A DNA stretch of 61,998 nucleotides from a virus (lineage: Duplodnaviria; Caudoviricetes): positions 1 to 61,998 of the IMG/VR virus record IMGVR_UViG_3300030372_001090. The stretch is one strand, 5' to 3'. Within the stretch, counting starts at the first letter, position 1. Each line of letters starts with the position of its first letter. Made by a program: the position numbers and the translations under genes. This document shows positions 24,312-45,533 of this stretch, piece by piece. The notes under the pieces were generated by a model. The model saw only the letters and a program-made list of their open reading frames with translations. It made no database searches and was not told the origin of the DNA.

Positions 24312-24313
24312 AA

Positions 24314-24496: not shown

Positions 24497-24996
24497 TATA
24501 ATCTTTTTCTATTAGGATTCTTTTTTCTATTTCTCATTTTGTTTTTGAGCTTTTTAACTTTATCTTTTACTCCTCTAGCTACTCCTGCTGCTAATCCTCC
24601 TGCTACTGCTAACGCTCCTGTTTTCATTGCTGCACCTGCAAGAATTGGATTTGCTGCTATTGCCATTCCTACTCCTGTTCCTTTTGCTAATGCTTTTGCT
24701 CCAGATTTAAGCCCTCTAACTACAGATCTTTTTCTTGCATTTTTTCGTTGTTTACGGGTGGTTGTTGTAGTTTTTCCGTCTTTAGTTTTAGTTATAGTTG
24801 CACCCTTTACCCCTTTTTTATACTCACGAGTTTTAGTAGCTCCACTTTTTTTAGTCTTAGTAGTTTTAAATGCTTTTTTCTTGCCAGCCTTAAACTCCTT
24901 AACTTTTTTTACAGAACCGTCTCTTCTTCTTTTAGTGACTGTCTTACTTCCGTCTTTATTGACAGTTGTAGTTTTTCTTTTTGTTTTTAAGGCCAT
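24496..24996 (-). CDS. Very basic Lys/Arg/Thr-rich protein with a Gly/Ala hydrophobic segment
   Basis: 166 aa; KDGSKT/RDGSVK/KDGKT hairpin repeats; AAMKTGALAVAGGLAAGVA. Confidence 0.7.
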   Translation of the reverse strand: MALKTKRKTTTVNKDGSKTVTKRRRDGSVKKVKEFKAGKKKAFKTTKTKKSGATKTREYKKGVKGATITKTKDGKTTTTTRKQRKNARKRSVVRGLKSGAKALAKGTGVGMAIAANPILAGAAMKTGALAVAGGLAAGVARGVKDKVKKLKNKMRNRKKNPNRKRL

Positions 24997-25010
24997 TAGT
25001 TATTTTTTTA

Positions 25011-25018
25011 CAAATATA
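25011..25018 (-). promoter_or_regulatory. Bacteroidota-type -7 promoter box (TATATTTG)
   Basis: Intergenic, 15 nt upstream of ATG 24996. Confidence 0.65.
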
Positions 25019-25030
25019 ATAATTATATAA

Positions 25031-25327
25031 TTAGCATTTCCAACGTCTTCTCGCTTGACGTATTCTTGAGTTTGGGTTGTTTCGTGTTTTAGCACTACTT
25101 CTTTTTAATTGCCCTAAACTTCTAGCACAATAAGACTTTCTTCTTTTTGCAGACTTACTACCAGCTTTTACCTTACCCGTAACAGCAGTTTTTAACTTAC
25201 TACCTGGATTAGCCTTACGATATGCAGCTACTCCTTTTTTAGTCATGCCAGCTCCTGACTTTGTCTTTCTGTAGTTACCGCCTTTTCCTATACTTCTTTT
25301 TATAGGTTTTGCTTTTGCTCTTGCCAT
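25031..25327 (-). CDS. Basic protein with RRKSYCARS...RRRWKC motif (DUF6321-like, from memory)
   Basis: 98 aa; GMTKKGVAAYRKANPGSKLK and RRKSYCAR motifs of a kind I recall from marine phage proteins. Confidence 0.7.
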   Translation of the reverse strand: MARAKAKPIKRSIGKGGNYRKTKSGAGMTKKGVAAYRKANPGSKLKTAVTGKVKAGSKSAKRRKSYCARSLGQLKRSSAKTRNNPNSRIRQARRRWKC

Positions 25328-25566
25328 TATGATCTTACTTTAGCTGCTCTTGTATTACTAACTACTGTTTTTCCTCTAGCTCCAGCTTTTTTCTTTTTAC
25401 GAGCTGTTGCTGCTCTTTGTCTTCTAGATAAGCTATTAGCCTTTGCTCTGGGTAAACATCTATCTGGATTCTTTTTGTCTTTAGAAGTACCGCACTTGCC
25501 TTTTATTTTACCATCAGCACCGATTCTTACCCAGTCTTGTTTAACCCAATTCTTAAGTGCCCCCAT
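25327..25566 (-). CDS. Basic protein with LKNWVKQDWV...CG...RCLP motif (DUF5872-like, from memory)
   Basis: 79 aa; TAATG coupling on both sides. Confidence 0.7.
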   Translation of the reverse strand: MGALKNWVKQDWVRIGADGKIKGKCGTSKDKKNPDRCLPRAKANSLSRRQRAATARKKKKAGARGKTVVSNTRAAKVRS

Positions 25567-25697
25567 TACTTCTTTTTCTTTGGAGTGCTCTTCATTGACT
25601 TTAACATTTTATCTATCTTAGCTGCTTGGCCTTTATGCATAGCAGATGCTTTTTTTAATTCCGAAGCTATTTTTTTAAGTTTATTTTTATCTATCAT
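25566..25697 (-). CDS. Small basic protein (43 aa, MIDKNKLKKIASELKKASAMHKGQA...)
   Basis: Not in the ORF track; ATGA and TAATG overlaps with its neighbours. Confidence 0.7.
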   Translation of the reverse strand: MIDKNKLKKIASELKKASAMHKGQAAKIDKMLKSMKSTPKKKK

Positions 25698-25855
25698 TTT
25701 TTTGATTTTTTTGCGTAGTTAGGGTCTTTACAATATTTACTTGCAGCCATGTTTGCATATGCACTTGGATAAGTATCAAATGTTCTCTTAGCCCAAGCTA
25801 TACCTGCTGCACAAATTTTGTTTCCCTTACTTTTTGTTCTACCTTTTTTTGCCAT
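25694..25855 (-). CDS. Small basic protein (53 aa, ...KICAAGIAWAKRTFDTYPSAYANMAASKYCK...)
   Basis: Not in the ORF track; YPSAYA motif and two Cys; coupled to both neighbours. Confidence 0.75.
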   Translation of the reverse strand: MAKKGRTKSKGNKICAAGIAWAKRTFDTYPSAYANMAASKYCKDPNYAKKSKK

Positions 25856-26331
25856 TATCTTTTAGTATTTCTTCTGTTCATAAAATTCTTTTTAGCATCA
25901 GACCTAGCCTTCAACATTCTTTTACCAACATTCTTTACCTTGTTGAAAAACTCATCTCTTGGATCATTTTTCTTTGGTTTACCAGGCTTTTTTGCCTTCC
26001 TCATTTTTTCCTCCAACATTAACTTACGTTTTTGATAAGGAGTCAGTTTGTCCGCTTTCTTATCTTTAAGAGTAGGCTTCTTCATTTTCTTTTTATCTTC
26101 CATCATTTTAAGCCTTTTCTTTTTCTCCATAGCCTTTTTTCTATCTTCAATAGCTTTTGGATTCTTATTGATTTTTTTCTGAATCTTTTTCTTTCTAGTC
26201 TCCTGAATTTTTGTTCTGAGCTTTTTTAAAGGAGCTTTCTTTTTGCTCTTTAACTTCTTTATTCTGTCAGCAGCTTTTTTTCTTTTTTCAACTAGCTTGT
26301 TGAGTTTTTCTCTGTCGGTTTTTTTTGCCAT
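25855..26331 (-). CDS. Very Lys-rich helical protein
   Basis: 158 aa; first gene after the promoter box at 26351. Confidence 0.7.
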   Translation of the reverse strand: MAKKTDREKLNKLVEKRKKAADRIKKLKSKKKAPLKKLRTKIQETRKKKIQKKINKNPKAIEDRKKAMEKKKRLKMMEDKKKMKKPTLKDKKADKLTPYQKRKLMLEEKMRKAKKPGKPKKNDPRDEFFNKVKNVGKRMLKARSDAKKNFMNRRNTKR

Positions 26332-26350
26332 GGTAGTAATTTTATTTTAA

Positions 26351-26358
26351 CAAAGATA
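26351..26358 (-). promoter_or_regulatory. Bacteroidota-type -7 promoter box (TATCTTTG)
   Basis: Intergenic, 20 nt upstream of ATG 26331. Confidence 0.65.
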
Positions 26359-26372
26359 GTAAAGATTTTTTA

Positions 26373-26798
26373 TTATAATTCTATGTTTTGTTGTAGCCAT
26401 CTGAATGCTTTGTTTACTAAACTATTTTCTTTTTTCTTTTTTTTAGCCAAACAAACTTTGCATAAAGAATCGGATACGCTAACTCTAACAGAGTCTACTA
26501 CTTGGGTAACAACAATCTTATAATCATATACTATACTATCTGTGCTTATTAGTTTTAAATTATTTAATTCATATATACTGTCAGTATACTTCTTTTCTAT
26601 TTTTTTTATATCTCTCTTCTTTCTCCATAAGTCTTGTTCTAACAAAACTTTTTGTTTTTTTTCTTTGTGAACCTGTTTTATTGTGGCATCAGCCAAACTA
26701 TCTAGGTCTATGCTAGTTGCATCGTCCATATCAGGTAGGGTTTCTGGCTGAGAACAAGACGATACTAAAAACAATAATATTAAAACACACCTAGTCAT
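26373..26798 (-). CDS. Lipoprotein, possible o-spanin
   Basis: Signal peptide with lipobox LVSS|C; overlaps the upstream TM coiled-coil gene. Confidence 0.55.
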   Translation of the reverse strand: MTRCVLILLFLVSSCSQPETLPDMDDATSIDLDSLADATIKQVHKEKKQKVLLEQDLWRKKRDIKKIEKKYTDSIYELNNLKLISTDSIVYDYKIVVTQVVDSVRVSVSDSLCKVCLAKKKKKENSLVNKAFRWLQQNIEL

Positions 26799-27920: not shown

Positions 27921-28091
27921 TTAATCTTTAAATATAGCATAAATTTTTGCTTTTCGTGAAGACGATGTAATCTTGCCTTTGATGGTTCTTGTAGGCACTT
28001 CACAAATAAGTTCTCTACGAGGCTCTGTTTCTATAATTTGAGCCGCAGGCTCAAATTTTGGATTTTTAGAGTTCAGCTTTCTTTTCTTCAT
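27921..28091 (-). CDS. Small hypothetical protein between groEL and groES (56 aa, MKKRKLNSKNPKFEP...)
   Basis: Not in the ORF track; overlaps the groEL 3' end and stops 3 nt before groES. Confidence 0.6.
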   Translation of the reverse strand: MKKRKLNSKNPKFEPAAQIIETEPRRELICEVPTRTIKGKITSSSRKAKIYAIFKD

Positions 28092-29700
28092 CTGGTTGGT
28101 TTTGTCTTTTGTGAGTTATTATAGCATTAGTGCTAAGTATAGTTGTAGCCACACTTACTGCATTGAGCAGAGCGTTCTTAGTTACTTTCAAAGGATCAAT
28201 GACACCGAGCTTATACATATCACCATACTTGTCATTCTTAACATCGTATCCATAGTTGTATGTTCTGTCATATATAACATTAATGATCTCTGGTTTTTCT
28301 TTATTAGCATTATCTAATATCTGATTGATAGGAGCTTGGAGAGCAGTAGCTAGAATTATCTTGGCCATGTTTTCATTATCGTCTCTTCCCATGTCAGATT
28401 TTTTTAGTAATTTAGTAGATTGTCTAAATAAAGCTGTACCTCCACCACATAGTATACCCTCTTCTAATGCTGACCTGACAGCACAAACAGAGTCATCAAC
28501 CCTATCATACTTTTCTTTTTGTTCTACATCAGAGTTACCTCCAACATATATACAGCCTATGGCTCCAGCTAGACTTGCTATACGTTCATTCACAAACTCT
28601 CTCTCATGCTTTACTGTCATTCCTTTTTGCTGAACTTTCAACTCATCTATTCTTTTTTTGGTTTCTTCTGGCTTGTCATCTGTAGTAAATATTATTGTGC
28701 TGTCTAAACCTGAAACAATTTTATCTGCATGACCTAGATCCTCCATTCTAATTAAACTCAGATCATCACCAGTTTTTTCACTAAAGAACTTTGCACCTAC
28801 AGCAAAAGCTATATCGCTCATCAGCTCTGTAGACTTGTATCCAAAGTTAGGTGGTATGATATTACAAAACTTTAATCCATTACGAACTACGTTTGCAGCT
28901 AGTGTATTAATTACATTTCCTGCACACGGAGCTATAATTAATAGTTTGTCATTACTTTGTATAATTGGTTTTAGTACATTCTCAATCTGCAATACATTAC
29001 TTATCTCTGCATCACACACTAATACTTTTACATCTTCAAGAACACACTCGTCTTTCTTTTGATTATTGATAAACATATTAGATGTATATCCTCTGCCAAC
29101 TTTGATTCCGTTTGTTACCTCAGCATATGTCTCGGCTGTCATAGAGTTCTCCACAGTAACAATCCCGTTGATCCCAACCTTCTCATAGGCATCAGCAATT
29201 ATAGTTCCAATCTCTTTGTCGTTGTTTGCAGATATACAAGCAACATCTAACAACCTCTCCTGACTTACTTTCTTAGAATGTTTTTCTAGTCCTTGTATAA
29301 CTTCTTGAGTTATTTTATTTATATGTCGTATGACCTCAGTAACATTTGTGTCTTTCTGAATGTAACCCTGACCTGCTTTAACTAATGCTTCTGTTAATAC
29401 AATAGCTGTTGTCGTTCCATCTCCAGCCGTATTAGCAGTTCTATTAGCTGCGTCTTTCATCATTTGTATAGCAAGGTTCTCAATAGGATCATCCAAGAAT
29501 ACAGACTGTGCTACAGTTACTCCGTCTTTAGTTATAGTAATCCCTTTTAAATGATCGGCAGATTCTATAAGCACAGTTTTCCCTAAAGGCCCAAGCGTGC
29601 TCTTTACAGCTTTAGATATTGAAGTTATTCCTTGAATTAATTTTTGGCGAGCATCTTCGTCAAACGAAAGGTCTCTTGGGATGTATCCTTGTGATGTCAT
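28066..29700 (-). CDS. groEL: Chaperonin GroEL (phage-encoded)
   Basis: AVKSTLGP, ITKDGVTVA, AGDGTTTA, ISANND, ALEEGILCGGG, GVIDPLKV; no GGM tail. Confidence 0.97.
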   Translation of the reverse strand: MTSQGYIPRDLSFDEDARQKLIQGITSISKAVKSTLGPLGKTVLIESADHLKGITITKDGVTVAQSVFLDDPIENLAIQMMKDAANRTANTAGDGTTTAIVLTEALVKAGQGYIQKDTNVTEVIRHINKITQEVIQGLEKHSKKVSQERLLDVACISANNDKEIGTIIADAYEKVGINGIVTVENSMTAETYAEVTNGIKVGRGYTSNMFINNQKKDECVLEDVKVLVCDAEISNVLQIENVLKPIIQSNDKLLIIAPCAGNVINTLAANVVRNGLKFCNIIPPNFGYKSTELMSDIAFAVGAKFFSEKTGDDLSLIRMEDLGHADKIVSGLDSTIIFTTDDKPEETKKRIDELKVQQKGMTVKHEREFVNERIASLAGAIGCIYVGGNSDVEQKEKYDRVDDSVCAVRSALEEGILCGGGTALFRQSTKLLKKSDMGRDDNENMAKIILATALQAPINQILDNANKEKPEIINVIYDRTYNYGYDVKNDKYGDMYKLGVIDPLKVTKNALLNAVSVATTILSTNAIITHKRQNQPDEEKKAEL

Positions 29701-29726
29701 AGCAGTATATTAAATTTAATTGAACA

Positions 29727-29734
29727 CAAATATA
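29727..29734 (-). promoter_or_regulatory. Bacteroidota-type -7 promoter box for groEL (TATATTTG)
   Basis: 27 nt upstream of the groEL ATG. Confidence 0.65.
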
Positions 29735-29749
29735 ACAATTATTATTATA

Positions 29750-29967
29750 TGACAAAAGACAGAGTTTGCTTTTGTTTTTTGTATTTTATAAAATTATATA
29801 TATATTTTTTTTTATTCTATTTTATTTTGACTACTAAAAGTCTGCCATAAAAAAGTAATAAAAATATAAATAGCTGAGAAACAATAAGATAGAAAAAGTT
29901 ATATAAATAATAAACTCTGCCAAAACTCTGCCATATCTTTGTCTTTAGTTGTCATTAGTCTGTCATA
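29750..29967. repeat. Iteron-like repeats flanking an AT-rich core; candidate replication origin
   Basis: Tandem AAACTCTGCCA x2 (29912-29933); TGYCW cores at 29918, 29929, 29940, 29950, 29961; AGTCTGCCATA at 29839; inverted copy at 29750-29767. Confidence 0.55.
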
Positions 29968-29970
29968 TAC

Positions 29971-30000
29971 AAAAAAAAAGAGAAAACTTATCGTCTTCTC
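29971..30000 (-). terminator. Intrinsic terminator
   Basis: Minus strand GAGAAGAC-GATAA-GTTTTCTC followed by T9, after ORF 30034..30312. Confidence 0.7.
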
Positions 30001-30033
30001 CTTTTCACTACTAATCAAACTAAACGGGATCTT

Positions 30034-30312
30034 CTAAAAACTTTCGTACATACTATCTCCATCCATACGAAGTTTTGCTCTTTCTATTCCATCTGCTATA
30101 CTATCAATCTTGTATTGCTTTTCCATTTGCTTTCTGTATCGTGCTGCTTGAGCTATACCAGTCTCTCCATCAAAACGATCATTTATTAGTCTACCATTTT
30201 TTACATAAAGGCCTTCAACGTAATTACCCATACTATTATCTCTTTCCATATTATTTTTGTTTTTAGAACCATACGTCTTACACGGATTCATACCACAGCC
30301 ACAGTTCATCAT
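30034..30312 (-). CDS. Hypothetical protein
   Basis: 92 aa; N-terminal CGCGMNPC; GLYVKNGRLIN; variant promoter box TATCTTTA at 30325-30332. Confidence 0.7.
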   Translation of the reverse strand: MMNCGCGMNPCKTYGSKNKNNMERDNSMGNYVEGLYVKNGRLINDRFDGETGIAQAARYRKQMEKQYKIDSIADGIERAKLRMDGDSMYESF

Positions 30313-30369
30313 TTGTTTTTTTTGTAAAGATAATAAAAATATATTAGATATTCAGAGGTTGAGGATAAT

Positions 30370-30660
30370 ACACCGTCTCACGCACACGCCACGCAAACCG
30401 AAACCGATTTTTTTTTGGTGGGGGGGTTGTTGTTTTTGTGCAGTTGTTCCGTTTTTTTTGGCTTTTTGTTTTGGCTGGGCTGGGCTGGGTTGCCTGCGTC
30501 CCGCCCTGCGTCCCGTTCCCGTCCTCCGTCCTTTGTTTTGTCCTTTGCGGTGGGCTTTTCGTCCCCCGTTCCCCCGTTTGCGGTACGTTTAAAGGGTAAG
30601 CGTTCCGCATTTATGCCCGTACGAACTACACAAAAAGCAAACAAAACACGGGGAAATGTA
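30370..30660. other. GC-rich, strand-skewed non-coding island at the late/early divergence; candidate genome terminus or packaging region
   Basis: Only one A on the plus strand from 30408 to 30584; G7 run, GCTGG repeats, CCTGCGTCCCG x2, CCCCCGTT x2. Confidence 0.6.
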
Positions 30661-30733
30661 AAAAAATTTAGGGCTGTAACTTATTGAAACTCAACACATT
30701 AAAACAAAACTATAAAAAAAGTGTGCAGTTATG

Positions 30734-30764
30734 TTGCACAGTTTAAATAATTGTATTACATTTG
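30734..30764 (+). promoter_or_regulatory. First early promoter (TTG ... TACATTTG)
   Basis: -7 box at 30757-30764 and TTG at 30734-30736 with Bacteroidota-like spacing; overlapped by the palindrome TGTGCA-N7-TGCACA. Confidence 0.7.
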
Positions 30765-30802
30765 AACAATAATTAAACAAACTACTAACTAAATTTAATC
30801 AA

Positions 30803-31075
30803 ATGAAAGTAAAAAATTTTATCAGCAACAACGGAAACCCTATCGCAAATCAATTTCTAATAACAGAAAAAGATAAAGAAATTTTTCAAAGTTATAAGAG
30901 CATTATTGCCGTAAAAAACTACAAAACACAAAAAACGTATTTAGATGAATTTTACTGGGATTATTCAGTAACTACGGGAAAATATAGAAATATGTTTTTA
31001 GGTGAGGGAATTGCAGAAACTAGACAAAAGATCAAGGACGGAGTTTATAAATTAAAAAACCTAAATAAAAAATAA
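30803..31075 (+). CDS. Early hypothetical protein
   Basis: 90 aa, ANQF...FQSYKSIIA...WDYSVTTGKYRNMFL; ACTAACTAAA leader. Confidence 0.8.
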   Translation: MKVKNFISNNGNPIANQFLITEKDKEIFQSYKSIIAVKNYKTQKTYLDEFYWDYSVTTGKYRNMFLGEGIAETRQKIKDGVYKLKNLNKK

Positions 31076-31076
31076 T

Positions 31077-31484
31077 ATGAACACACAAACACACACTTAT
31101 ATTGACTCTTATGGAATGCAGAAGAGTTTAATAAATTCAGCGTTGATATATATGGAGGGCAGACAATACTATGTCCATATTGAATTGGTAGGTTATGCGG
31201 GTAATCCTGTCTATCTTATGAGAGTTGTAAGAAAAGGAAAGGAACATTTTTACAATATAGAGGCAAAAGTTGAAGGATTAGAAGACGCAACAAACAAACG
31301 TCTTTATCTTGTAATGATGGACGCAATATGTGTTAAGGGAGACAAACAGACTTCTTTTAATACCAGCCGAATTTCTCATTTATTTGAGTCATTTACAGAT
31401 ACTAGAAAAAAATACGGAGGGATAGTCTATCAAAATGGAAAAATAATGGACGGAGAATTTAAACCAAATAAAACAAACAAATGA
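31077..31484 (+). CDS. Early hypothetical protein
   Basis: 135-aa ORF in a tightly packed operon. Confidence 0.75.
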   Translation: MNTQTHTYIDSYGMQKSLINSALIYMEGRQYYVHIELVGYAGNPVYLMRVVRKGKEHFYNIEAKVEGLEDATNKRLYLVMMDAICVKGDKQTSFNTSRISHLFESFTDTRKKYGGIVYQNGKIMDGEFKPNKTNK

Positions 31485-31747
31485 AAATAATAATGACTAG
31501 AACGGAACTAGAAAAAAATCCAGATACAAAAACTACTTATTTGACAAAAGAAGTAGACACGGAAGAACTGACGGAAAAAGCATATAAACTAATAACGGGA
31601 GATGATACACTCAAATGGTTTAGACGTTTAGGCGGTACAGAAACGGCTCAAAAATCATATACATGTAGAGGGTACAACATAACCCGCTTAACATCTATAA
31701 GTCCCGACAGACAAACAAAAATAGTAAGAACCTTTAAATTCCAATAA
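31481..31747 (+). CDS. Early hypothetical protein
   Basis: 88 aa; ATGA overlap with the upstream gene. Confidence 0.75.
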   Translation: MKIIMTRTELEKNPDTKTTYLTKEVDTEELTEKAYKLITGDDTLKWFRRLGGTETAQKSYTCRGYNITRLTSISPDRQTKIVRTFKFQ

Positions 31748-31748
31748 T

Positions 31749-31931
31749 ATGAACATAATTGAACTAAGAAAACTAATATTTGAACTTCAAAAAGATCCGA
31801 TCGGCAACGAAAAACTTATTAAATTTTATCAGCAAAAAGACAAAGAACTAATAAATAAACTTAATAAGGAAATAAACGAAAAATTAAAAACTTTAAGTCC
31901 GTTTATTAGCCATAGATACAACGTAAGGTAA
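31749..31931 (+). CDS. Early hypothetical protein
   Basis: 60 aa; its stop codon lies inside hammerhead stem I. Confidence 0.65.
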   Translation: MNIIELRKLIFELQKDPIGNEKLIKFYQQKDKELINKLNKEINEKLKTLSPFISHRYNVR

Positions 31932-31982
31932 TTCTGATGAGTCCAAAAGGACGAAACGGGGCAAATTTGCCCCGTCAATTAC
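31928..31982 (+). ncRNA. Type I hammerhead self-cleaving ribozyme
   Basis: Stem I GUAAUU/AAUUAC; core CUGAUGA; stem II GUCC-AAAA-GGAC; GAAA; stem III ACGGGGCA/UGCCCCGU; GUC cleavage triplet (cut after C31976). Confidence 0.93.
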
Positions 31983-32000
31983 TAACTAAATTAAATTAAA

Positions 32001-32300
32001 ATGAAAATAGATATGAAAAAAAGATTAAAGAAAATTGAAGGCACAGAATATTGGAGAGCATTCAAAAATCTAGAAGTTACTAGCGTTAGATACTTTGAGA
32101 CTAGACGGGGACACGGCTATGAATGTAAAACAAACATTAATGACATTTCAATATGGAATGACGGAATGGGTGGCGGGACTTATCTTGCTTTTAGAGGAAA
32201 TAAAAACGCATTTCCTGAATTTGAAAAATATACTGAAAGGGATTTAGAAATTTTAATAGATGATTATGAAATTGATGAGTTTAATTACGGAGAAATGTAA
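32001..32300 (+). CDS. Early hypothetical protein
   Basis: 99 aa, VRYFETRRG...IWNDGMGGGTY; directly downstream of the ribozyme. Confidence 0.75.
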   Translation: MKIDMKKRLKKIEGTEYWRAFKNLEVTSVRYFETRRGHGYECKTNINDISIWNDGMGGGTYLAFRGNKNAFPEFEKYTERDLEILIDDYEIDEFNYGEM

Positions 32301-32329
32301 AAAAACTTTCACAATTAAAAATAATTGAC

Positions 32330-32337
32330 TATATTTG
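32330..32337 (+). promoter_or_regulatory. Second early promoter -7 box (TATATTTG)
   Basis: Context AAATAATTG..TATATTTGAACAA is nearly identical to the first early promoter. Confidence 0.7.
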
Positions 32338-32368
32338 AACAAATTTTACTAATTAAATTAAACACAAA

Positions 32369-32539
32369 ATGAATATATATAGAGATAAAAACGGATATTT
32401 AGTGATAGAGGACGTTTTGGGCGGAGAGTATAAAATGCTAAGATATTTATACTACTCTAAGAGAGACGCAATAAAATTATTTAAGCAAGAATATAAAGAA
32501 TTCTATCATAAAAACGGACACAAAAAATCTTGGCTATGA
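32369..32539 (+). CDS. Early hypothetical protein (56 aa, MNIYRDKNGYLVIEDV...)
   Basis: Not in the ORF track; TACTAATTAAA leader. Confidence 0.7.
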   Translation: MNIYRDKNGYLVIEDVLGGEYKMLRYLYYSKRDAIKLFKQEYKEFYHKNGHKKSWL

Positions 32540-32694
32540 AGATAAAAAGAAAAGAAGTAAAGCTATGGTTAGGCAATAGCTATGAAGATTGGATAGAAGA
32601 CTTAATTTTCAGACTACTAAACAATAAGGTTTCTGTCAAAGAAATCAAAGAGGAAGTAAAGCTAATGTATAAAGATTATATAAATAAAAATTAA
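32536..32694 (+). CDS. Early hypothetical protein (52 aa, MKIKRKEVKLWLGNSY...)
   Basis: Not in the ORF track; ATGA overlap. Confidence 0.65.
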   Translation: MKIKRKEVKLWLGNSYEDWIEDLIFRLLNNKVSVKEIKEEVKLMYKDYINKN

Positions 32695-32699
32695 ATTAT

Positions 32700-32909
32700 A
32701 TGAAACAGAGAAATGAATTAGACACACTAGAACACAATATTAACTTTTGGAAAAAAGTTGTAAAAATACAAGAACAAAAAATTAAAGAAGAAGTTTTTTA
32801 CTTTCCAATATCTTGGACTGAATATCTACACGCAAAAAGACAACTTGAAAGAGTTGAGAGAAAATACGGAACTACTGAAATTTGGGAGATTAGGGACTTG
32901 CACCGATAA
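32700..32909 (+). CDS. Early hypothetical protein
   Basis: 69-aa ORF. Confidence 0.7.
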   Translation: MKQRNELDTLEHNINFWKKVVKIQEQKIKEEVFYFPISWTEYLHAKRQLERVERKYGTTEIWEIRDLHR

Positions 32910-32996
32910 TTTATTTGTTGTGTTTCTGTGATTAGCTGAGGTTGAAATAGCCCTCAGCTTTTCGCAGTAGAAGACAATACTAACTAAACAAATAAA
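32910..32996 (+). promoter_or_regulatory. Long intergenic stem-loop (processing site or attenuator candidate)
   Basis: TTTATTTGTT/AACAAATAAA, CTGTGA/TCGCAG and AGCTGAGG/CCTCAGCT pairings. Confidence 0.55.
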
Positions 32997-33001
32997 AGCA
33001 A

Positions 33002-33292
33002 ATGGAAATAAAATTTAATGAAATAAATAATAAAGCGAAAATAAGTATAATTAAATATCAGCCCCAGTTAAGTAAAAGGGCAACATATTTTATAGACGAA
33101 AGTAGTTGGCTAAAAGTATTAAGAAAGAGAATGGCTGAAGACATTAAAATTAACGGAACATCTGATCAATTTTTAATGGACGAATGTTATCAAATAGGAG
33201 AGGCAACAGAAATAGAATTTCCTTTGTCTGAAGCAAAAAGATTAATAGTTGAATTGTTAAACATAAATAACAAAAACTATGGAGACGAATAA
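33002..33292 (+). CDS. Early hypothetical protein
   Basis: 96-aa ORF. Confidence 0.7.
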   Translation: MEIKFNEINNKAKISIIKYQPQLSKRATYFIDESSWLKVLRKRMAEDIKINGTSDQFLMDECYQIGEATEIEFPLSEAKRLIVELLNINNKNYGDE

Positions 33293-33473
33293 ATATATAG
33301 TTTGGGTAGGAGGAACACCAAATTATTTTAATTCTTTACTTGAAGCCCAAGCCGAAGTTTTAAAATGGATAGATAAAGGTTATGATGATATTAAAACAGA
33401 AAGAATAATACACACAATAGAAAAAAATAATAACTATGATGACGACTACAACAAAATGGGAAACATATTTTGA
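33279..33473 (+). CDS. Early hypothetical protein
   Basis: 64 aa, YIVWVGG...WIDKGYDD. Confidence 0.7.
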   Translation: METNKYIVWVGGTPNYFNSLLEAQAEVLKWIDKGYDDIKTERIIHTIEKNNNYDDDYNKMGNIF

Positions 33474-33900
33474 TGTTTCTGAATATATACACAAAGAAAT
33501 AGATTACTTTCAAAGAGATAAACAAGAGTTTCTTGTTAGTATATTATGGGACGAAGACAGAAAACCGTCTGATGTTACTGATAAAGAAATTGAAGATCAT
33601 TTTCTTAATGATTATTATATAGGAGAAAACCATTGGGAGTTTTTTAAAGAAGATTTAAATGAAGAATTTAAAAAACATATAGGCAAGACAATTTATGTTG
33701 AGGGAAAAAATATGGGGTGGAGAAATAGAACTGGATATAAAGAGTTTGAATTAAAAAAAGGAGAAGATATATTTAGAGAGATTGCTCCTGAATGTGAATT
33801 AACTTATTATATTAAAAAAGAAAAAGAGGGAGAGTATGAGGTAAAGATTAGCCACCACGATAGTCCGATGGGAGAATATTATAACATTAAAATTAAATAA
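33436..33900 (+). CDS. Early hypothetical protein
   Basis: 154 aa, acidic, MGWRNRTGY...SHHDSPMGE. Confidence 0.75.
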   Translation: MMTTTTKWETYFDVSEYIHKEIDYFQRDKQEFLVSILWDEDRKPSDVTDKEIEDHFLNDYYIGENHWEFFKEDLNEEFKKHIGKTIYVEGKNMGWRNRTGYKEFELKKGEDIFREIAPECELTYYIKKEKEGEYEVKISHHDSPMGEYYNIKIK

Positions 33901-33902
33901 AT

Positions 33903-34019
33903 ATGAAAACAAATTATGATAAACTGTTTAATGTATTAATTGAATGGTATAACGAAAAACAAATTGATGAAATTTGGGAACTATTAAAAAAATACGATAA
34001 AACAATTAAAACTAAATAG
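33903..34019 (+). CDS. Early hypothetical protein (38 aa)
   Basis: Not in the ORF track; MKTNYDKLFNVLIEWYNEK...; fills the gap exactly. Confidence 0.55.
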   Translation: MKTNYDKLFNVLIEWYNEKQIDEIWELLKKYDKTIKTK

Positions 34020-34021
34020 AT

Positions 34022-34432
34022 ATGAAAAAATTTAAAACACCAATTCCATTATGGAGAGAAATGACAAAAGACGATAGAGAAGATTTAATAGACAATTATA
34101 TAGAATGGATAAGAACAGATTGTTCTTCTCCATATTGCGAGGTAAGATGGCTCGTAGATCAGTTGTTGCATAGCAAACACGAACTAGATATGATCCAAAT
34201 TCTGAAAGATACAACAGAATGCTATTATATAGACGATAACAGAATTTCAGATTATGTAATATATGATAGGGCAAACAATAGTTTGGTAAGATTTAATGAA
34301 AGCGGAGAGATTATATTGTATGGAGATAAAGAAGAAGCAGTTGAAAATTGTTATGGTAACGAGGAAGTAATACAATTTGATAAATTACCAAAAGACAAAC
34401 AAAAAGAAATTATTAATCAATTAAATAAATAA
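34022..34432 (+). CDS. Early hypothetical protein
   Basis: 136-aa ORF. Confidence 0.7.
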   Translation: MKKFKTPIPLWREMTKDDREDLIDNYIEWIRTDCSSPYCEVRWLVDQLLHSKHELDMIQILKDTTECYYIDDNRISDYVIYDRANNSLVRFNESGEIILYGDKEEAVENCYGNEEVIQFDKLPKDKQKEIINQLNK

Positions 34433-34436
34433 AAAA

Positions 34437-34739
34437 ATGATAAAATTATATATAAGCACATTAGCTTTTGGCTTTGGAATATTAGCTGGAATTCAATTAG
34501 AAAGATTTGAACAAAAATATTCAAGCAACGCATACGTTGTAAGTTTTATAAATGAATTTGAGGGTTTTCAATTAGATATGCACGAGGACGTTTGGAACGG
34601 GAGAATAGATAGCGTTCCCGCAAGTTACTACTTGCATAATTTTGAAGTTATACTCCACGATCTAAGGAACGATCCGTCTGGATATACTTCATGGTATTGG
34701 GAGACAATGGATACTGATTATGGGCGTAAAAATAAATAG
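34437..34739 (+). CDS. Hypothetical membrane-anchored or secreted protein
   Basis: N-terminal hydrophobic segment LYISTLAFGFGILAGI. Confidence 0.65.
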   Translation: MIKLYISTLAFGFGILAGIQLERFEQKYSSNAYVVSFINEFEGFQLDMHEDVWNGRIDSVPASYYLHNFEVILHDLRNDPSGYTSWYWETMDTDYGRKNK

Positions 34740-34747
34740 TATCTTTG
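34740..34747 (+). promoter_or_regulatory. Bacteroidota-type -7 promoter box (TATCTTTG)
   Basis: Intergenic, about 10 nt before ATG 34758. Confidence 0.55.
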
Positions 34748-34757
34748 TAAGAAAAGC

Positions 34758-35624
34758 ATGAAAAAGTTTATTATATCTTCTGAGTTAAGCACGGATAACT
34801 TTACTAATAAAATAATATTAGTAAGAAACAGTATGCAAATTATAGAATCAAAAGAGAATCCAATTAAGGATATTCAAGATAATTTAAATGATTATGTTTT
34901 TACAATAGCAAAAGTAAATGTAAAAGCGTTAGTAAATATACCTATTGATGATTGGGATAGTAACGAAGTATTTATAAAAAATGCTTTTATCAAATTAAGA
35001 AAATCAAATATATCGGGTTATATAATTCATTACGATAGTTGTTCTGAGATTTGGTATGACGATCACGGGAGCGATATGAGAGTTACTGTTAAAGTGAAAG
35101 AAATTAATGACAACGATAGTGTAGTTGTTTCTCCTATGATGACAAATGAATTGTATACTTTAAATGATATAGTCTCTATGAATCTTTTAAATAATTTATG
35201 GGAAGTTACTCAGTTGTATGAAGAATACAAGTTTAAAGAATTAGGATATTTTATAGACAACAGAAGTTATTTTGAACTTAATTCTGATGAATATAATAAT
35301 CATATGTCTAAATTGTGGAGCTACGAGTACGAGAGAGAAGTTGATAATATAGAAAATACTTATATCTATCAAAATGAAACTTACAATTCTATTAAAGCAT
35401 TTACAAAGGAAGACAAAATGCGATTTAATATAGGCATGTATCCCGTGTCCTACTTCTTTACACAAGAAAAGTTAGATTATAATGATTATGATTTGAAAAC
35501 GGGAGATTTAATTACCTACACCAATAAACAATATATAGACGGAGAGCATAAAGAACAAGCATTATTAGTAATGGTTATTAGATCGGAAGATGATCTTCAA
35601 GATTTTTTTTCAACAAAACTTTGA
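34758..35624 (+). CDS. Hypothetical protein
   Basis: 288 aa, N/D/Y-rich, with its own promoter box. Confidence 0.75.
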   Translation: MKKFIISSELSTDNFTNKIILVRNSMQIIESKENPIKDIQDNLNDYVFTIAKVNVKALVNIPIDDWDSNEVFIKNAFIKLRKSNISGYIIHYDSCSEIWYDDHGSDMRVTVKVKEINDNDSVVVSPMMTNELYTLNDIVSMNLLNNLWEVTQLYEEYKFKELGYFIDNRSYFELNSDEYNNHMSKLWSYEYEREVDNIENTYIYQNETYNSIKAFTKEDKMRFNIGMYPVSYFFTQEKLDYNDYDLKTGDLITYTNKQYIDGEHKEQALLVMVIRSEDDLQDFFSTKL

Positions 35625-35674
35625 TTTAATCAAAAATTGTTGTAATATTACACTCTAATTAAACTAAATTTAAA

Positions 35675-35845
35675 ATGGATAAACTAACGGCTCAAGAAGA
35701 AAGAGAGTATAATCATTTAAAGCGTCAGCTTTTTGATCAGAAATCTTTTATTGAAATGGATTTTGTTTCTAATCAGTTATTACTAAACAGATATAACGAA
35801 TTAGCAAACAAGAAATCCAAAAGCGTATTAACAAAAACTTGTTAG
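35675..35845 (+). CDS. Hypothetical protein (56 aa, MDKLTAQEEREYNHLK...)
   Basis: Not in the ORF track; A-rich leader. Confidence 0.65.
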   Translation: MDKLTAQEEREYNHLKRQLFDQKSFIEMDFVSNQLLLNRYNELANKKSKSVLTKTC

Positions 35846-35852
35846 TGTGTAT

Positions 35853-36067
35853 GGAAGTTAATGTTAGGCGAGATCAACAACGTAATAAGAAACTGTATGG
35901 CGGGTTTCTTTCTTCCTAAAAAAGGTTTGGGTGGTAACGTAGTGAGTTCCCGAGTTGGAATTTATAAAATCTACAAACGGCAGGATAAAGCAAAATATCT
36001 AAGTACAATTACAGCTTTAAAGATAGTGCACGATTGAGACGATATAGTACCACACCTGCCCAACCTT
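35853..36067 (+). ncRNA. Candidate structured intergenic RNA
   Basis: Several nested complementary segments and a possible pseudoknot (see findings). Confidence 0.35.
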
Positions 36068-36091
36068 ATTTATTAACTTAATAATGTAAAA

Positions 36092-36268
36092 ATGGATAAA
36101 GAATACAGAAAATTTTTAAGCAATTACAAGTACAGAGTTTTAGATTACAACAGTTGGAGCGAGTATGTAAAGAATGAGTACAATAAGATGAGGGAAAAAA
36201 ACCTCAAAACAAGACAAAGAAAAGAAAGAAAGCAGTTAAAAGACACCCCAATAAATTTTAATTGGTAA
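36092..36268 (+). CDS. Hypothetical protein (58 aa, MDKEYRKFLSNYKY...)
   Basis: Not in the ORF track; TAATG coupling to the next gene. Confidence 0.65.
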   Translation: MDKEYRKFLSNYKYRVLDYNSWSEYVKNEYNKMREKNLKTRQRKERKQLKDTPINFNW

Positions 36269-36465
36269 TGGAAGTATATCTTGTAAGCAGATGTTGTGGA
36301 GACACCTTTGAAGAGGTAGAAATTATAGAAGATTGGAATAATCAATACATTTGTTCTGATTGCGGAGAGTATTGCGATACTATGACAAATTATGATTACG
36401 GAGAATTAGTAAGATACGATAGAGATGAAGCAATGGAAGATGAAAGAAGAGCATTCAGAAGATGA
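36268..36465 (+). CDS. Small zinc-ribbon protein
   Basis: SRCCG...ICSDCGEYC; start moved to ATG 36268. Confidence 0.7.
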   Translation: MEVYLVSRCCGDTFEEVEIIEDWNNQYICSDCGEYCDTMTNYDYGELVRYDRDEAMEDERRAFRR

Positions 36466-36599
36466 AAGAAATACACGACATGATCTTAAAAGAAAAGATG
36501 AAAGAGAAACCTAACAAAAGATTTATACAATGGTTGCAAAGGTTGAATCAAGACATCTTAAAAAAAATTATAATAAACAGTTATAAAGGGAGGGAATAA
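36462..36599 (+). CDS. Hypothetical protein (45 aa, MKEIHDMILKEKMKEKPNKRFIQWLQ...)
   Basis: Not in the ORF track; ATGA overlap. Confidence 0.6.
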   Translation: MKEIHDMILKEKMKEKPNKRFIQWLQRLNQDILKKIIINSYKGRE

Positions 36600-36724
36600 T
36601 CCCATTAATTAACGGGTACAGCCCATATATTAAATGTTTGCCCTTTATATTAAGGGGGGAGTTAAAAAGGCGATTTTGCCGTAACAGTTAATACTATTAG
36701 CTTTCCCCTTATAAATTAAATTAA

Positions 36725-37003
36725 ATGAAAAGACTATCACAATATCTAGTTGATAAACTTAGATCTGAACAACATCTAAGAAACTACAATAAAGCAAATA
36801 GATTAGACACTATTGAAATGAATAATTATTTCAAAGAGTGCGATAAAATAGAAATAAAAGGTAGATTTGTATCTGCCTGTAAATACGCTTTGCCTATACC
36901 TCAAAGGGTAATTATCAAAAATGATATGAGCAAGTATAAATTAAATAAACAACTAACAGAAGAATATATAAATAGATATGAAAGAAATAAGAAAAACTCC
37001 TAA
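36725..37003 (+). CDS. Hypothetical protein
   Basis: 92-aa ORF with an AAATTAAATTAA leader. Confidence 0.7.
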   Translation: MKRLSQYLVDKLRSEQHLRNYNKANRLDTIEMNNYFKECDKIEIKGRFVSACKYALPIPQRVIIKNDMSKYKLNKQLTEEYINRYERNKKNS

Positions 37004-37304
37004 CTACTATATAGGAAAAAATGAGTATGAAGCCATAGAGGTTATATACGGATTTTCCTGTTCATTCAATGTGGGTAACGCAGTTACTTATTTATTAAGA
37101 GCTGGAAAAAAAGGAGAGGAAGGTATGACTCAACTAGCCAAGCATATAGAGGATATAGAGAAAGCAATACATCATTTGCAAAAGGAAATAAACTTTCTTC
37201 ACATTGACGATCTAATGAAAAAAGGAATGAGTTATAAGAAGGCAAAAGAAACAATAGAAAAAATTAATCAATTAAAAAAAGAAAATGAAAAGAGAAATAT
37301 TTGA
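36978..37304 (+). CDS. DUF3310-like protein
   Basis: PNYY...EAIEVI...FNVGNAVTYLLRAGKKG...EDIEKAIHHL. Confidence 0.75.
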   Translation: MKEIRKTPNYYIGKNEYEAIEVIYGFSCSFNVGNAVTYLLRAGKKGEEGMTQLAKHIEDIEKAIHHLQKEINFLHIDDLMKKGMSYKKAKETIEKINQLKKENEKRNI

Positions 37305-37578
37305 TAAATATGCTACGGCAATAGCTGATAGGTTTCATCTTACTCTAGATGAAATGTTTAGTAAAACAAAAAAAAGAGAAATAGTAGACGCAAGACAAAT
37401 GCTTTACTTTTTGTCTAGAGAAAGACCAATAAGAATTTCATATATACAAAAATTTATGGAAGACAACGGGCATATTGTTACTCATTCCACAATTATACAT
37501 GGTTATAATAAAGCTAAAGAATCTGTTGACAACGATCAAGACTATGCTGACGTTATTAATCAAATAAAAAATGTATAA
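37285..37578 (+). CDS. DnaA C-terminal (domain IV)-like HTH protein
   Basis: SKTKKREIVDARQMLYFLSRE...HSTIIHGYNK matches the Bac_DnaA_C pattern. Confidence 0.75.
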   Translation: MKREIFDKYATAIADRFHLTLDEMFSKTKKREIVDARQMLYFLSRERPIRISYIQKFMEDNGHIVTHSTIIHGYNKAKESVDNDQDYADVINQIKNV

Positions 37579-37987
37579 CATAATAGATATATATAAACAA
37601 GCTATGAATGATGACGCTATGAAAATAGTAAGACATGATAATGTGAGCTATATAAACGTAGGCGTTAAGATAAGTAAGTTTCCAAGTAAAACAGAAATAC
37701 TTAATTGTTCAAGAAACGGAGATTACTTTCAAGAAATATCTAGCGATGAATATAATATGTTCTACAATAATGGGTGGGAGGCAGGTTGTATTATTCTTGC
37801 AATATCTAACTGTGTTAGAAAACTAAAAATGATACAACAAAAAATGCAGGAAGAAGTTAATTCAAGAAAAAACGATAAGTTTATCAAAAACTTAAAAACA
37901 AAACGGGAGTTTGTTATGAAAAGATATTCTTATTATACACAAAAACTAATTAAACTAAAAAATCATGACAAAATTAAAAACAGTTAA
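37571..37987 (+). CDS. Hypothetical protein
   Basis: 138-aa ORF overlapping both neighbours. Confidence 0.7.
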   Translation: MYNIIDIYKQAMNDDAMKIVRHDNVSYINVGVKISKFPSKTEILNCSRNGDYFQEISSDEYNMFYNNGWEAGCIILAISNCVRKLKMIQQKMQEEVNSRKNDKFIKNLKTKREFVMKRYSYYTQKLIKLKNHDKIKNS

Positions 37988-44051: not shown

Positions 44052-45153
44052 TAAGGAAAACAAATACGGCAAGCGTATCAGGTTATCTCCTGACGAAGTA
44101 GATTTTATCTTACAAAGAAGAGCAAAAAACTTAGACAATATAAACAATAACACCGCACTTGATATACATCTTGAAGAAAGAGGTATAGATAAAAAAGACG
44201 TTGTAAGCGTAAAGCATTGGCAAAGCGGAAGCGGGGACTACAGATTTTCTATTGTTACAAAAGAAAACTTAGAGTTAGATGAGCAGCAAATTTTTGGAAA
44301 AGTAAATTCATTTATAGCTAACTACGCACCTGATTATAAGCCACTCCGAAAAAAAATAAAAGAAAGAAAGTCAGGCCATCTTTTAGTTGTAAACCCTGCT
44401 GATATACACATAGGTAAATATGCTAATGAAAAAGAAACAAAGCAAGAGTATAATACTGAAATAGCCGTCTCAAGGGTTTTAGAGGGGGTTAGCGGCCTTA
44501 TAGAGAAGTCAAAGGGGTTTGATATTGATAGGGTTTTATTTTGCATAGGCAACGATGTATTACATATAGACAACGTATATTCTACTACAACTAAAGGTAC
44601 ATATCAGGATACAGATGGTAAGTGGTGGGAGCATTATGAAGTAGCTTTGCAACTTTATGTTAAATGCGTTGAAATGTTACGCAAAGTTGCCCCTGTAGAT
44701 GTTTTGCACAGTATGAGCAATCATGACTATCAGTCAGGATATCATCTAGCACATACTCTTAAAAGCTGGTTCAGAAAAGCAAAAGACGTTTTCTTTGATA
44801 TCAGCGTATCTCATAGAAAGTATTATAAATATGGAACAAACTTGTTAGGGTTAGAACACGGGGACGGAGCGAAAATGGTTAACCTACCTTTGCTTATGGC
44901 TCAAGAGAATCCAGTAGATTGGGCATCAACAACACATCGTTATTGGTATTTACACCACATACATCATAAAGTAAAACACAAGTGGTTAGACGGAAAAGAT
45001 TACATAGGAGTTACTGTAGAATATATGAGATCGCCTTCGTCTTCAGATAGCTGGCACTCACGCAAAGGATTTACTGGAGCTCCATTAGCCTGCGAGGGGT
45101 TTATACATAGTAAACTAACTGGGCAGGTGGCACGACTAACTCATTATTTCTAA
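44041..45153 (+). CDS. Calcineurin-like metallophosphoesterase
   Basis: ADIHIG, GNDVLHID, SNHD, EHGD, HHIHH. Confidence 0.85.
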   Translation: MKSDKENKYGKRIRLSPDEVDFILQRRAKNLDNINNNTALDIHLEERGIDKKDVVSVKHWQSGSGDYRFSIVTKENLELDEQQIFGKVNSFIANYAPDYKPLRKKIKERKSGHLLVVNPADIHIGKYANEKETKQEYNTEIAVSRVLEGVSGLIEKSKGFDIDRVLFCIGNDVLHIDNVYSTTTKGTYQDTDGKWWEHYEVALQLYVKCVEMLRKVAPVDVLHSMSNHDYQSGYHLAHTLKSWFRKAKDVFFDISVSHRKYYKYGTNLLGLEHGDGAKMVNLPLLMAQENPVDWASTTHRYWYLHHIHHKVKHKWLDGKDYIGVTVEYMRSPSSSDSWHSRKGFTGAPLACEGFIHSKLTGQVARLTHYF

Positions 45154-45296
45154 TGAAAAAGTATTTAATCAAATACACCTTAAGAGATGGAAGCAAAGAA
45201 TCTGTTGAATTAGAAACTCGTGATTTGTTTTTTTCTTTGTCTCAGTTTGAAAGAAACAGAGATATATTAAGCTGGGATCTTATTAAGTTAATTTAA
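45153..45296 (+). CDS. Small hypothetical protein (47 aa, MKKYLIKYTLRDGSKESVELET...)
   Basis: Not in the ORF track; TAATG coupling; last plus-strand gene. Confidence 0.6.
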   Translation: MKKYLIKYTLRDGSKESVELETRDLFFSLSQFERNRDILSWDLIKLI

Positions 45297-45533
45297 AAAA
45301 ACTATTTCAGATAATTGTTTTAGGTCTAAGAGTTCCTGACACTTTTCGTATTCTTCGGTATAAATATAATAATCAATTAATGTGTCATAGACTGGATCAT
45401 TACCATTTAGTATTGGTTGATCTGGATTATATATAAAGTACACCTCATCTTCATTAAAAAAATCTTCTAATCTTTTTCTACCTGTCAAAAGAAGATACGA
45501 GTTATTCATACATTTATCCTCATCAAACATCAT
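45288..45533 (-). CDS. Hypothetical protein with a UVR-like EEYEKCQEL motif
   Basis: 81 aa; ATGA overlap with the giant gene. Confidence 0.65.
   Translation of the reverse strand: MMFDEDKCMNNSYLLLTGRKRLEDFFNEDEVYFIYNPDQPILNGNDPVYDTLIDYYIYTEEYEKCQELLDLKQLSEIVFLN

Follow-up and report, generated by a model that had tools for sequence, protein, structure and literature searches.

An excess of purines on coding strands is known as Szybalski-type transcription asymmetry. Chi, KOPS and other skewed oligomers are 5–8 nt long, occur genome-wide and are tied to the direction of replication. GATC, a palindrome with a known methylase, clusters at oriC and the dnaA promoter, where it is read by SeqA. 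Here we compare these and other systems with the distribution of the tetranucleotide ACGG, and of its complement CCGT, in the genome of a tailed phage (IMG/VR record IMGVR_UViG_3300030372_001090). The window, which is the whole assembly, is one 61,998-bp contig of 33% G+C; the phage is a podophage, and cultured members of its group infect Flavobacteriia. In the window, ACGG is concentrated at the head of a rightward early operon, next to a point at which the word changes strand.

ACGG resembles words under Szybalski-type asymmetry in that its strand preference flips with gene orientation (at 30.63 and 45.3 kb), but asymmetry of this type explains direction only, not a four- to fivefold local excess at synonymous sites. 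As with Chi and KOPS, an oriented short word switches direction at a defined point; unlike them, ACGG is 4 nt long, is confined to 2–4 kb, follows transcription and is not conserved across the family. As with GATC and SeqA, a 4-bp word is concentrated several-fold in a control region, coding sequence included, and is avoided elsewhere by some phages; unlike GATC, ACGG is asymmetric, and no methylase was found among the open reading frames (ORFs) scanned, which were 50 of the 81 in the window, searched against Pfam and/or PHROGs (the 81 are simple longest-ORF calls, made without a trained gene finder).

Other precedents come from RNA. The T4 endoribonuclease RegB cuts GGAG in early mRNAs; it is described as reading single-stranded RNA and serving early-to-late switching, with secondary structure protecting its sites and some cuts falling within coding sequences (PMC3014915). 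The parallel with the window is a tetranucleotide on early transcripts; the difference is that RegB sites are mostly ribosome-binding sites in spacers, whereas here there are dozens of copies at synonymous sites. For the toxin MazF, a pentad has been reported as unusually abundant in one mRNA (PMC7470975, title of reference 19). That paper treats the abundance or paucity of a 3- to 7-nt word as a mark of targeting by a sequence-specific RNase, which would cover the enriched and the depleted lineages described below; the antisense excess found here would not be expected of such an enzyme. Finally, a leading-region restriction logic has been described for the Autographiviridae, where a bipartite Type I motif is avoided (PMC12455610). 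Selection on a short word that is confined to the variable early region matches two sister phages of the window (L013 and L083) and the hypervariable head of its early operon, but ACGG is enriched in the window, not avoided. Narrow literature searches found no description of an ACGG signal in phages.

Direction and local excess of ACGG

The features on which the argument rests are as follows.

30344..30644, − strand: G+C-rich island (45–47% GC, against 33% for the genome) holding the eight left-arm sites
30648..32517, + strand: ACGG-rich head of the rightward early operon (the + arm), with 18 sense ACGG and three CCGT
30803-31075, 31077-31484, 31481-31747, 31749-31931, 32001-32300 and 32369-32539, + strand: six small head genes, with spacers
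45153..45533, no strand: convergent point of the + block (30803-45296) and a − block, where the ACGG/CCGT ratio reverts

The flip very probably has two components. One is a coding-strand preference for ACGG that turns at the divergent early-promoter region. The other is a genuine four- to fivefold excess, confined to this subclade, in the synonymous sites and spacers of whichever accessory genes fill the first 2–4 kb and in the adjacent island. A preliminary description of the window, made from the sequence alone, had counted the words by hand, and its counts are exact. The stretch 30370-30620 holds eight CCGT (30373, 30449, 30513, 30519, 30526, 30566, 30574 and 30617) and no ACGG; 30640-32520 holds 18 ACGG and three CCGT (30909, 31899 and 31972); and neither word occurs between 30620 and 30648, where the switch had been placed. 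Its finer details were also borne out: five ACG-G threonine codons in the 88-amino acid (aa) early ORF (31502, 31559, 31571, 31595 and 31643), an AGA-CGG, found as an xxA-CGG site at 32105, one ACGG (31956) and one CCGT (31972) that belong to a ribozyme, both being inside a type I hammerhead match, and a drop in density after ~32.5 kb, with 10, 8, 2 and 1 sense sites in successive kilobases from the switch. Sites in the arm occupy all three frames and the spacers, and no helical or other regular spacing of them is evident.

The direction of the motif is coding-strand bias. Leftward genes occupy 30644 to 1, rightward genes 30803 to 45296, and a second leftward set extends from the contig end to 45288; the virion proteins, portal and large terminase are all encoded on the − strand. 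Sense and antisense ACGG stand at 63:15, 50:9 and 22:5 in the three gene blocks and at 135:29 genome-wide, and the ratio reverts at the convergent point near 45.3 kb, which the preliminary description did not remark on. ACGG is the second most asymmetric tetramer pair, and GAGA, GGAA, GGAG, GACG and many purine-rich words behave alike. Because the switch is the divergent transcription point, the sense bias is genome-wide and a second flip occurs at ~45.3 kb, polarity can be equated with gene orientation. Every skew change matches a change in gene orientation, and the rich zones of the window and of two relatives (L033 and L034) hold no oppositely oriented gene that would separate the two.

The preliminary description had proposed a polar DNA signal at a genome end or origin at ~30.63 kb, serving Chi-like protection, guiding loading or translocation, or bound by an end-protecting protein. 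Island and arm are indeed inversely oriented about the switch. However, gene orientation fully explains the polarity, which flips again at 45.3 kb, so that polarity is not a property of the signal, and an end- or origin-centered explanation, which we consider very unlikely, is unnecessary. The interpretation offered in the preliminary description is therefore only partly supported; what stands is the excess.

The + arm has 18 sites where 3.7 are predicted from the rest of the genome (naive Poisson 7e-8). Naive Poisson values of 1e-4 to 1e-7 for the best of 256 words are ordinary in relatives (16 of 17 sequences), and for this reason whole-genome simulation was used and only codon-level nulls carry weight. 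The six arm genes contain 16 ACGG, compared with 3.9 or 4.6 when synonymous codons are resampled from genome or block usage, 4.9 under a codon-order shuffle and 8.3 under within-gene synonymous permutation (P=2e-4). The enrichment thus survives a protein- and dipeptide-preserving codon resample, the test on which the preliminary description had staked it. In a family-wise scan, all 2-kb windows and all 256 oriented tetramers were compared with 200 simulated genomes in which every protein was kept. The largest anomaly in the genome is that of ACGG at 30501-32500 (23 vs 6.6, -log10 p 6.3; the null maximum is 5.3, and 0/200 simulations reach the observed value). Among raw word counts, the strongest anomaly is sense-strand AAAA/AAAG at 24300-26450 (185 vs 58); it probably stems from lysine-rich small proteins, and it vanishes under the protein-preserving null.

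The excess can be localized to codon choices that create the word. Contexts in which a synonymous choice can yield ACGG (Thr before a codon starting with G; Asn, Asp, His or Tyr before Gly) are realized in 15 of 22 cases in the arm and in 101 of 731 elsewhere. Where they cannot spell the word, these codons stay at background, with ACG at 1/28 against 39/952 and xAC at 35/99 against 956/3191. Resampling and these control contexts reject an artifact of amino-acid composition or codon usage. The CpG ratio of the arm, 1.12, is raised by ACGG (it is ~0.5 in both − blocks and 0.73 in the rest of the + block), and ACGG makes up 40% of the CpGs of the arm, compared with 10–15% elsewhere; general relaxation of CpG is rejected, as ACGG alone rises. 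CGG occurs 21 times in the arm where 5.3 are expected. A shadow of avoiding ATGG, CAG and CTG is likewise rejected (ATGG 8 vs 13.2, ACAG 6 vs 8.3, ACTG 3 vs 5.3). These results show that the excess is maintained on the word itself.

Constraint applies to ACGG followed by any base but T, which is found after none of 37 head sites, and the flanks of these sites show no longer consensus. Spill-over to other NCGG contexts is weaker, and ACG without the fourth G is unaffected. Avoidance of ACGGT extends to the whole genome, since Gly after an xAC codon is seldom GGT (6/62, vs 547/1285 after other codons) and Thr-Val is written ACG-GTx in 1 of 104 cases. A weaker second rise of sense ACGG occurs at 34600-38600 (4, 4, 3 and 4 per kb), within which 34758-35624 realizes four of five ACGG contexts.

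Enrichment and depletion in related phages

In GroEL searches, viral contigs yielded 26 loci and metagenome contigs a further 80. Thirty-two were hand-picked for having the most sequence past the groEL start; 31 with at least 3 kb were surveyed, and a shorter one, L030, was used separately. Duplicate loci are L007 and L070, L009 and L083, and L010 and L090, and L029 is the window's own phage.

The relative L003 (GroEL 95% identical) matches the window at 89% identity as far as 30816. In place of window positions 30816-32354 it has 2.3 kb without DNA homology, after which the two are collinear again. The genes of this cassette hold 11 ACGG where 3.2–3.6 are expected (0/4000 resamples reach this number; within-gene permutation P=0.0013), and five of them without even protein homology hold 8 where 2.4–2.9 are expected. 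The distal early genes of L003 are at expectation (3 vs 3.1). Chance is rejected by the codon nulls, the family-wise scan and this cassette. The heads of L034 (GroEL 92%) and L033 (87%) are likewise enriched, and the four heads of the window, L003, L033 and L034 together have 53 sense ACGG where 13.8 are expected (3.8-fold), or 28.3 under within-gene permutation (0/3000 permutations reach 53). Members of the subclade are related, and the four heads amount to about three independent gene sets. The heads of the window, L003 and L033 can be aligned over 3–17%, and L030 and L034 share 58% and 32% with the window. Both L033 and L034 come from one 94-kb metagenome contig that holds GroEL loci 87% and 92% identical to the window's, and this contig probably joins two related phages by chimeric assembly or concatenation.

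In each case, the rich zone begins at the switch and spans 1–4 kb, with 8, 4, 4, 5 and 1 sites in successive kilobases in L003, 8, 2, 1 and 0 in L034, and 5, 4, 5 and 0 in L033. The heads being non-homologous, inheritance of one module is rejected as the source of the enrichment. These data show that the excess follows position in the early operon, not gene identity.

The opposite pattern was found in sister phages. The raw comparison of words between early and late genes in the depleted subclade is confounded by many other differences, and it was therefore replaced by the synonymous-context statistic, applied on both sides of groEL in 18 loci. In the window's phage, 31 of 66 early and 15 of 91 late contexts are realized (p=7e-5). 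The relation is reversed in L013 (early 0/41, late 17/80; p=6e-4) and L083 (1/64, 7/33; p=2e-3), with the same trend, weaker, in L008 (1/32, 14/82; p=0.06) and L022 (2/35, 13/72; p=0.14). Two loci, L062 (1/54, 0/23) and L010 (3/53, 2/64), are low on both sides, and eleven (L016, L007, L079, L077, L085, L005, L035, L040, L096, L107 and L034) realize 12–26% on both. Control contexts are flat, at 20–44%, in all 18 loci. ACGG is under-represented in L013, L083, L062 and L010, the opposite of the window; it has been stripped from early genes in one subclade and concentrated in another. Here too, inheritance of one module is rejected, as the depleted early regions are mutually non-homologous, sharing little DNA (0–40% coverage with one another and 0–8% with L062). 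The early sides of L013, L083/L009, L008 and L022 are also poor in CAG- or CTG-containing words, AGCT, CATG, GACG and GCGG relative to their late sides (CAGG, for example, occurs once on the early and 35 times on the late side of L022). This scarcity of CAG- and CTG-type words may stem from protein composition or from further avoided sites.

Other words are missing from these genomes altogether. The window contains no TCGA, GCGC, CCGG or CGCG (Markov expectations ~18–44 each) and has ACGT, CATG and GTAC at about half their expectation; in relatives, CTAG is missing instead, and CATG and GATC are scarce. The missing tetramers suggest lineage-specific restriction avoidance, and on their account restriction pressure on short words appears strong in this phage family. 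The early-only avoidance in the sister subclade resembles the leading-region restriction logic described in PMC12455610, so that a first-injected segment at this locus, as the preliminary description had suggested, is a live possibility. In favor of an end-centered signal, this avoidance is consistent with a leading, first-injected early region.

A further explanation, which is unlikely in our assessment, is that the excess has no function and is a by-product of the history of the hypervariable cassettes, arising through mismatch repair that is biased (TG or CA to CG in an A..G frame) and accompanies frequent recombination, or through the word usage of a donor gene pool. The rich zone coincides with the stretch of early operon in which close relatives differ, and window genes at 33436-34739, which can still be aligned with L003, realize only one of nine contexts. 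In addition, xAT-GGx to xAC-GGx and ACA-G to ACG-G are both transitions that make the same CpG, and both orientations of the word are affected (see below). However, other CpG contexts are not raised alongside ACGG, and no donor with high genome-wide use of ACGG was found among the 31 relatives' loci. The units of the non-coding island persist in relatives whose islands are 62–92% identical, and the opposite, equally word-specific depletion in sister phages argues for selection.

The island, the promoter region and the hammerhead

Several features surround the switch or lie within the head.

30034..30312, − strand: 92-aa conserved gene downstream of the island, followed by a terminator-like strong hairpin at 29974-30006
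30705..30712, − strand: candidate leftward −7 box TAGTTTTG, suggested by a pattern scan
30722..30740, no strand: inverted repeat TGTGCA-N7-TGCACA, between the divergent promoter-like sites and overlapping the rightward TTG box
30734..30764, + strand: promoter-like TTG-N20-TACATTTG, 39 nt upstream of the first early gene (direct repeats and pattern scan)
31928..31982, + strand: type I hammerhead candidate between the fourth and fifth early genes
32287..32342, + strand: second copy, with the ACGGRGAAATGTAAAAAAA word and a promoter-like repeat with TATATTTG at 32307-32342 (direct repeats)

The island sites read ACGG on the − strand and lie within short tandem G/C-rich units (GGACG / ACGGG / ACGGGGGA), and for this reason the eight sites are not independent events. 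The island is 263–266 nt long in the window, L030, L003, L034 and L033, and islands that are 62–92% identical among relatives retain their units. In MW202828.1, the same place holds a GC-rich low-complexity island with other units and without ACGG. Nearly all six frames of the island are open because the − strand is poor in T. An 88-aa ORF in it has no Pfam or PHROG match, and its frame is not kept: lengths vary by 1–2 nt, with a frame switch in L034 and no equivalent ORF in L033. The island as a gene is therefore not supported, and we read it as non-coding from this lack of frame conservation. A structured small RNA is not supported either, as no Rfam family matches the island and each of its strands folds less well than dinucleotide-shuffled sequence (z +2.66 and +1.72).

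The candidate −7 box could drive a transcript through the island and the 92-aa gene to the hairpin. Behind both promoter-like sites stands what we take to be the Bacteroidetes promoter consensus. The second copy of the rightward repeats is 91% (D1) and 72% (D3) identical to the copies at 30648 and 30734. The inverted repeat, which is kept in alignments of L003, L030 and L034 and was scored as a − strand stem-loop, looks operator-like; a palindrome, GTGTCGTTAACGACAC, that recurs ahead of successive early genes in L002 (MW202828.1, 43.7–44.9 kb) likewise has the appearance of an operator. The 92-aa gene is an unannotated core gene of the group (83 clusters, many on 60–67-kb contigs); the protein is conserved across the whole group and hence is not lineage-specific, and its structure model is poor (pLDDT 65).

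The hammerhead match scores 32.6 bits, below the Rfam gathering score of 34, and the default Rfam scan missed it. Its core (CUGAUGA...GAAAC) is intact, with three stems (I, GUAAUU/AAUUAC; II, GUCC/GGAC; III, GGGGCA/UGCCCC) and then the cleavage triplet GUC. A strict core pattern has 10 sense-strand matches on the early sides of nine of 24 relatives (L003, L030, L004, L005, L040, L039, L013, which has two, L083 and L062). Across nine loci, stem II occurs in compensatory variants (GUCC/GGAC, GCCA/UGGC, GGAC/GUCC, GGAU/AUCC and GUUC/GAAC, listed without a formal covariation count). Hammerheads flanking gene blocks have been described in prophages (PMC3088659).

Some features count in favor of a signal at a genome end or origin. 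The spacer between groEL and the 92-aa gene (29700-30034) has 21–30% G+C, CTGCCA(T)A and TGTCAT repeats and long A/T runs, and could be an origin or control region; ATCGACATA repeats occur at the matching place in MW202828.1. A 97-aa protein (37285-37578, + strand) is a DnaA C-terminal helix-turn-helix domain (E 1.6e-9, above the Pfam cutoff). Phage N4, reportedly, has an [early ->][<- late] layout with its ends at the divergent point. Against a signal of this kind, DnaA-box-like words form no cluster at the switch or elsewhere in the genome, and the excess stops at the island, with none further leftward. The contig ends fall in the structural module, ~30 kb from the switch; in a check for circularity, the right-end ORF, when wrapped, extends by just 18 codons and lacks an ATG.

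The window also encodes a primase-helicase, an SNF2-type helicase, a PD-(D/E)XK protein, an exonuclease and, at 28066-29700 on the − strand, a full-length GroEL homologue. MW202828.1 annotates GroES beside its own GroEL; the sole Cpn10-like trace in the window is a weak sub-threshold match in a 189-aa protein (9169-9738, − strand) distant from groEL. The terminase best matches that of MW202828.1, an uncultured podovirus record (72% identical), followed by those of Flavobacterium, Cellulophaga, Tenacibaculum and Maribacter phages. Among the head genes, the 88-aa early protein (31481-31747, + strand) belongs to PHROG 16226 and has 42–49% identical homologues in 24 Vibrio phage records, including ICP1 (annotated ORF18), VPMCC14 and PWH3a-P1; no homologues of the 135-aa head protein were found among viral contigs. 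The phage is present in marine metagenomes from seven studies. RNA-library contigs, for which DNA carry-over is possible, sit exactly on 30008-30323 and on parts of 35.7–37.5 kb (coinciding with 35689-36005, 36202-36580 and 37297-37451) and scarcely on 30640-32520.

What may read the word

We tentatively favor an RNA-level reading, by analogy with known RNases and while holding it possible rather than probable: a sequence-specific RNase or RNA-binding protein would recognize ACGG on the immediate-early transcripts. The word would be present in the RNA of both divergent units, the rightward mRNA having about one site per 100 nt and the leftward leader, if the island is transcribed, about one per 30 nt in RNA that avoids secondary structure. 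An endoribonuclease or RNA-binding protein specific for the sequence, encoded by phage or host, would act at these sites, either making immediate-early messages shorter-lived, in the manner of T4 RegB at GGAG, or being titrated by them. Sister phages with ACGG-free early genes would escape the same kind of factor. This reading is favored because the sense excess is context-specific under within-gene permutation and the antisense excess is barely so, because the island sites are sense for the leftward unit and the island avoids structure (z +2.7), because the early operon carries a conserved hammerhead, from which RNA processing is predicted, and because the RegB and MazF precedents can explain enrichment and avoidance alike. 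As expected of targeting by a RegB- or MazF-type enzyme, candidate target transcripts are enriched on the sense strand (53 vs 13.8).

Several observations weigh against an RNA-level reading. Antisense CCGT is also in excess in the four heads (12 vs 2.3, 5.2-fold; 0/3000 resamples reach this number), as is CCG in the window arm (6 vs 1.9), and an antisense excess is not predicted by a signal that acts only in RNA. No RNase, RNA-binding protein or methyltransferase was recognized among the scanned ORFs, nor was a RegB-like gene or any other candidate for the cognate RNase; many of the small ORFs have no assignment. To our knowledge, no toxin or cleavage specificity for ACGG has been described. 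The 92-aa gene, which belongs to the leftward unit, realizes none of its six ACGG contexts, and in one natural variant a diverged patch (31507-31573) loses the sites at 31559 and 31571. The preliminary description had proposed that relatives be examined for the same polarity. The closest relatives share the enrichment, which is lacking at or below 82% GroEL identity: relatives at 80–82% rise mildly at most (head contexts realized in 4/15, 7/33, 6/22, 9/27, 9/29 and 2/19 cases), and more distant ones, MW202828.1 included, are not enriched.

As sense and antisense words are enriched to a similar degree, the excess is not demonstrably polar; the heads contain no opposite-strand genes, which would separate sense from pointing away from the switch. 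The lack of demonstrable polarity counts against a signal at a genome end or origin as well, as do the 4-nt core with no longer consensus and the absence of enrichment in relatives outside the subclade. Nothing points to the Chi-like function considered in the preliminary description; the word is shorter than 5 nt and its enrichment is not shared by relatives at or below 82% GroEL identity.

The similar enrichment of both orientations (3.8-fold sense and 5.2-fold antisense; CGG 21 vs 5.3 and CCG 6 vs 1.9) raises the possibility, which we regard as rather unlikely, that ACGG/CCGT is a word in duplex DNA, read by a restriction-modification-type enzyme or a DNA-binding protein on the first-expressed, and possibly first-entering, region. 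Sister phages would then have purged a restriction target, and the window lineage would have concentrated the word, for example as a binding field or a modification-dependent timer. Removal from the early side only in L013 and L083, and more weakly in L008 and L022, from regions that are non-homologous, is consistent with this explanation, as are the four absent tetramers, which indicate extreme restriction pressure on CpG tetramers. Avoidance of a motif in the leading region only is documented for Type I systems (PMC12455610). A duplex DNA word accounts better than an RNA-level reading for the antisense excess and for the avoidance pattern of the family. However, it gives no reason for enrichment, and no methyltransferase or nuclease of such specificity was found among the scanned ORFs. 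We know of no mechanism by which enriching a restriction-type word helps a phage. Moreover, the antisense excess comes mostly from one relative, L034 (6 vs 0.43; the other three heads have 2, 2 and 2 vs 0.39, 0.56 and 0.92), and is marginal when pooled under within-gene permutation (12 vs 8.1, P=0.04). The 92-aa gene adjoining the island does not have a single ACGG context realized.

Returning to a word read by a sequence-specific factor, one synthesis, which is doubtful at present, is that ACGG is an immediate-early tag. Accessory genes landing at the head of the operon would be rewritten synonymously to carry ACGG, the island would be a dense array of the same word, and an RNase, RNA-binding protein or defense nuclease would read it. 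The scrubbing seen in sister phages would then reflect an arms race with one tetranucleotide at stake, confined to the part of the genome that is first expressed or first to enter.

The locus carries a caution, in that a striking polarity switch may be mere gene orientation; telling this trivial part from the real one is possible only with nulls that preserve the proteins and with relatives that carry different genes. If functional, the excess would be one of the rare examples of synonymous-site selection for a short signal whatever genes carry it, with opposite selection on one word in sister phages. It would also offer a handle on a sequence-specific factor at work between marine Flavobacteriia and the phages that infect them, and on the shaping of the variable leading region of podophages.

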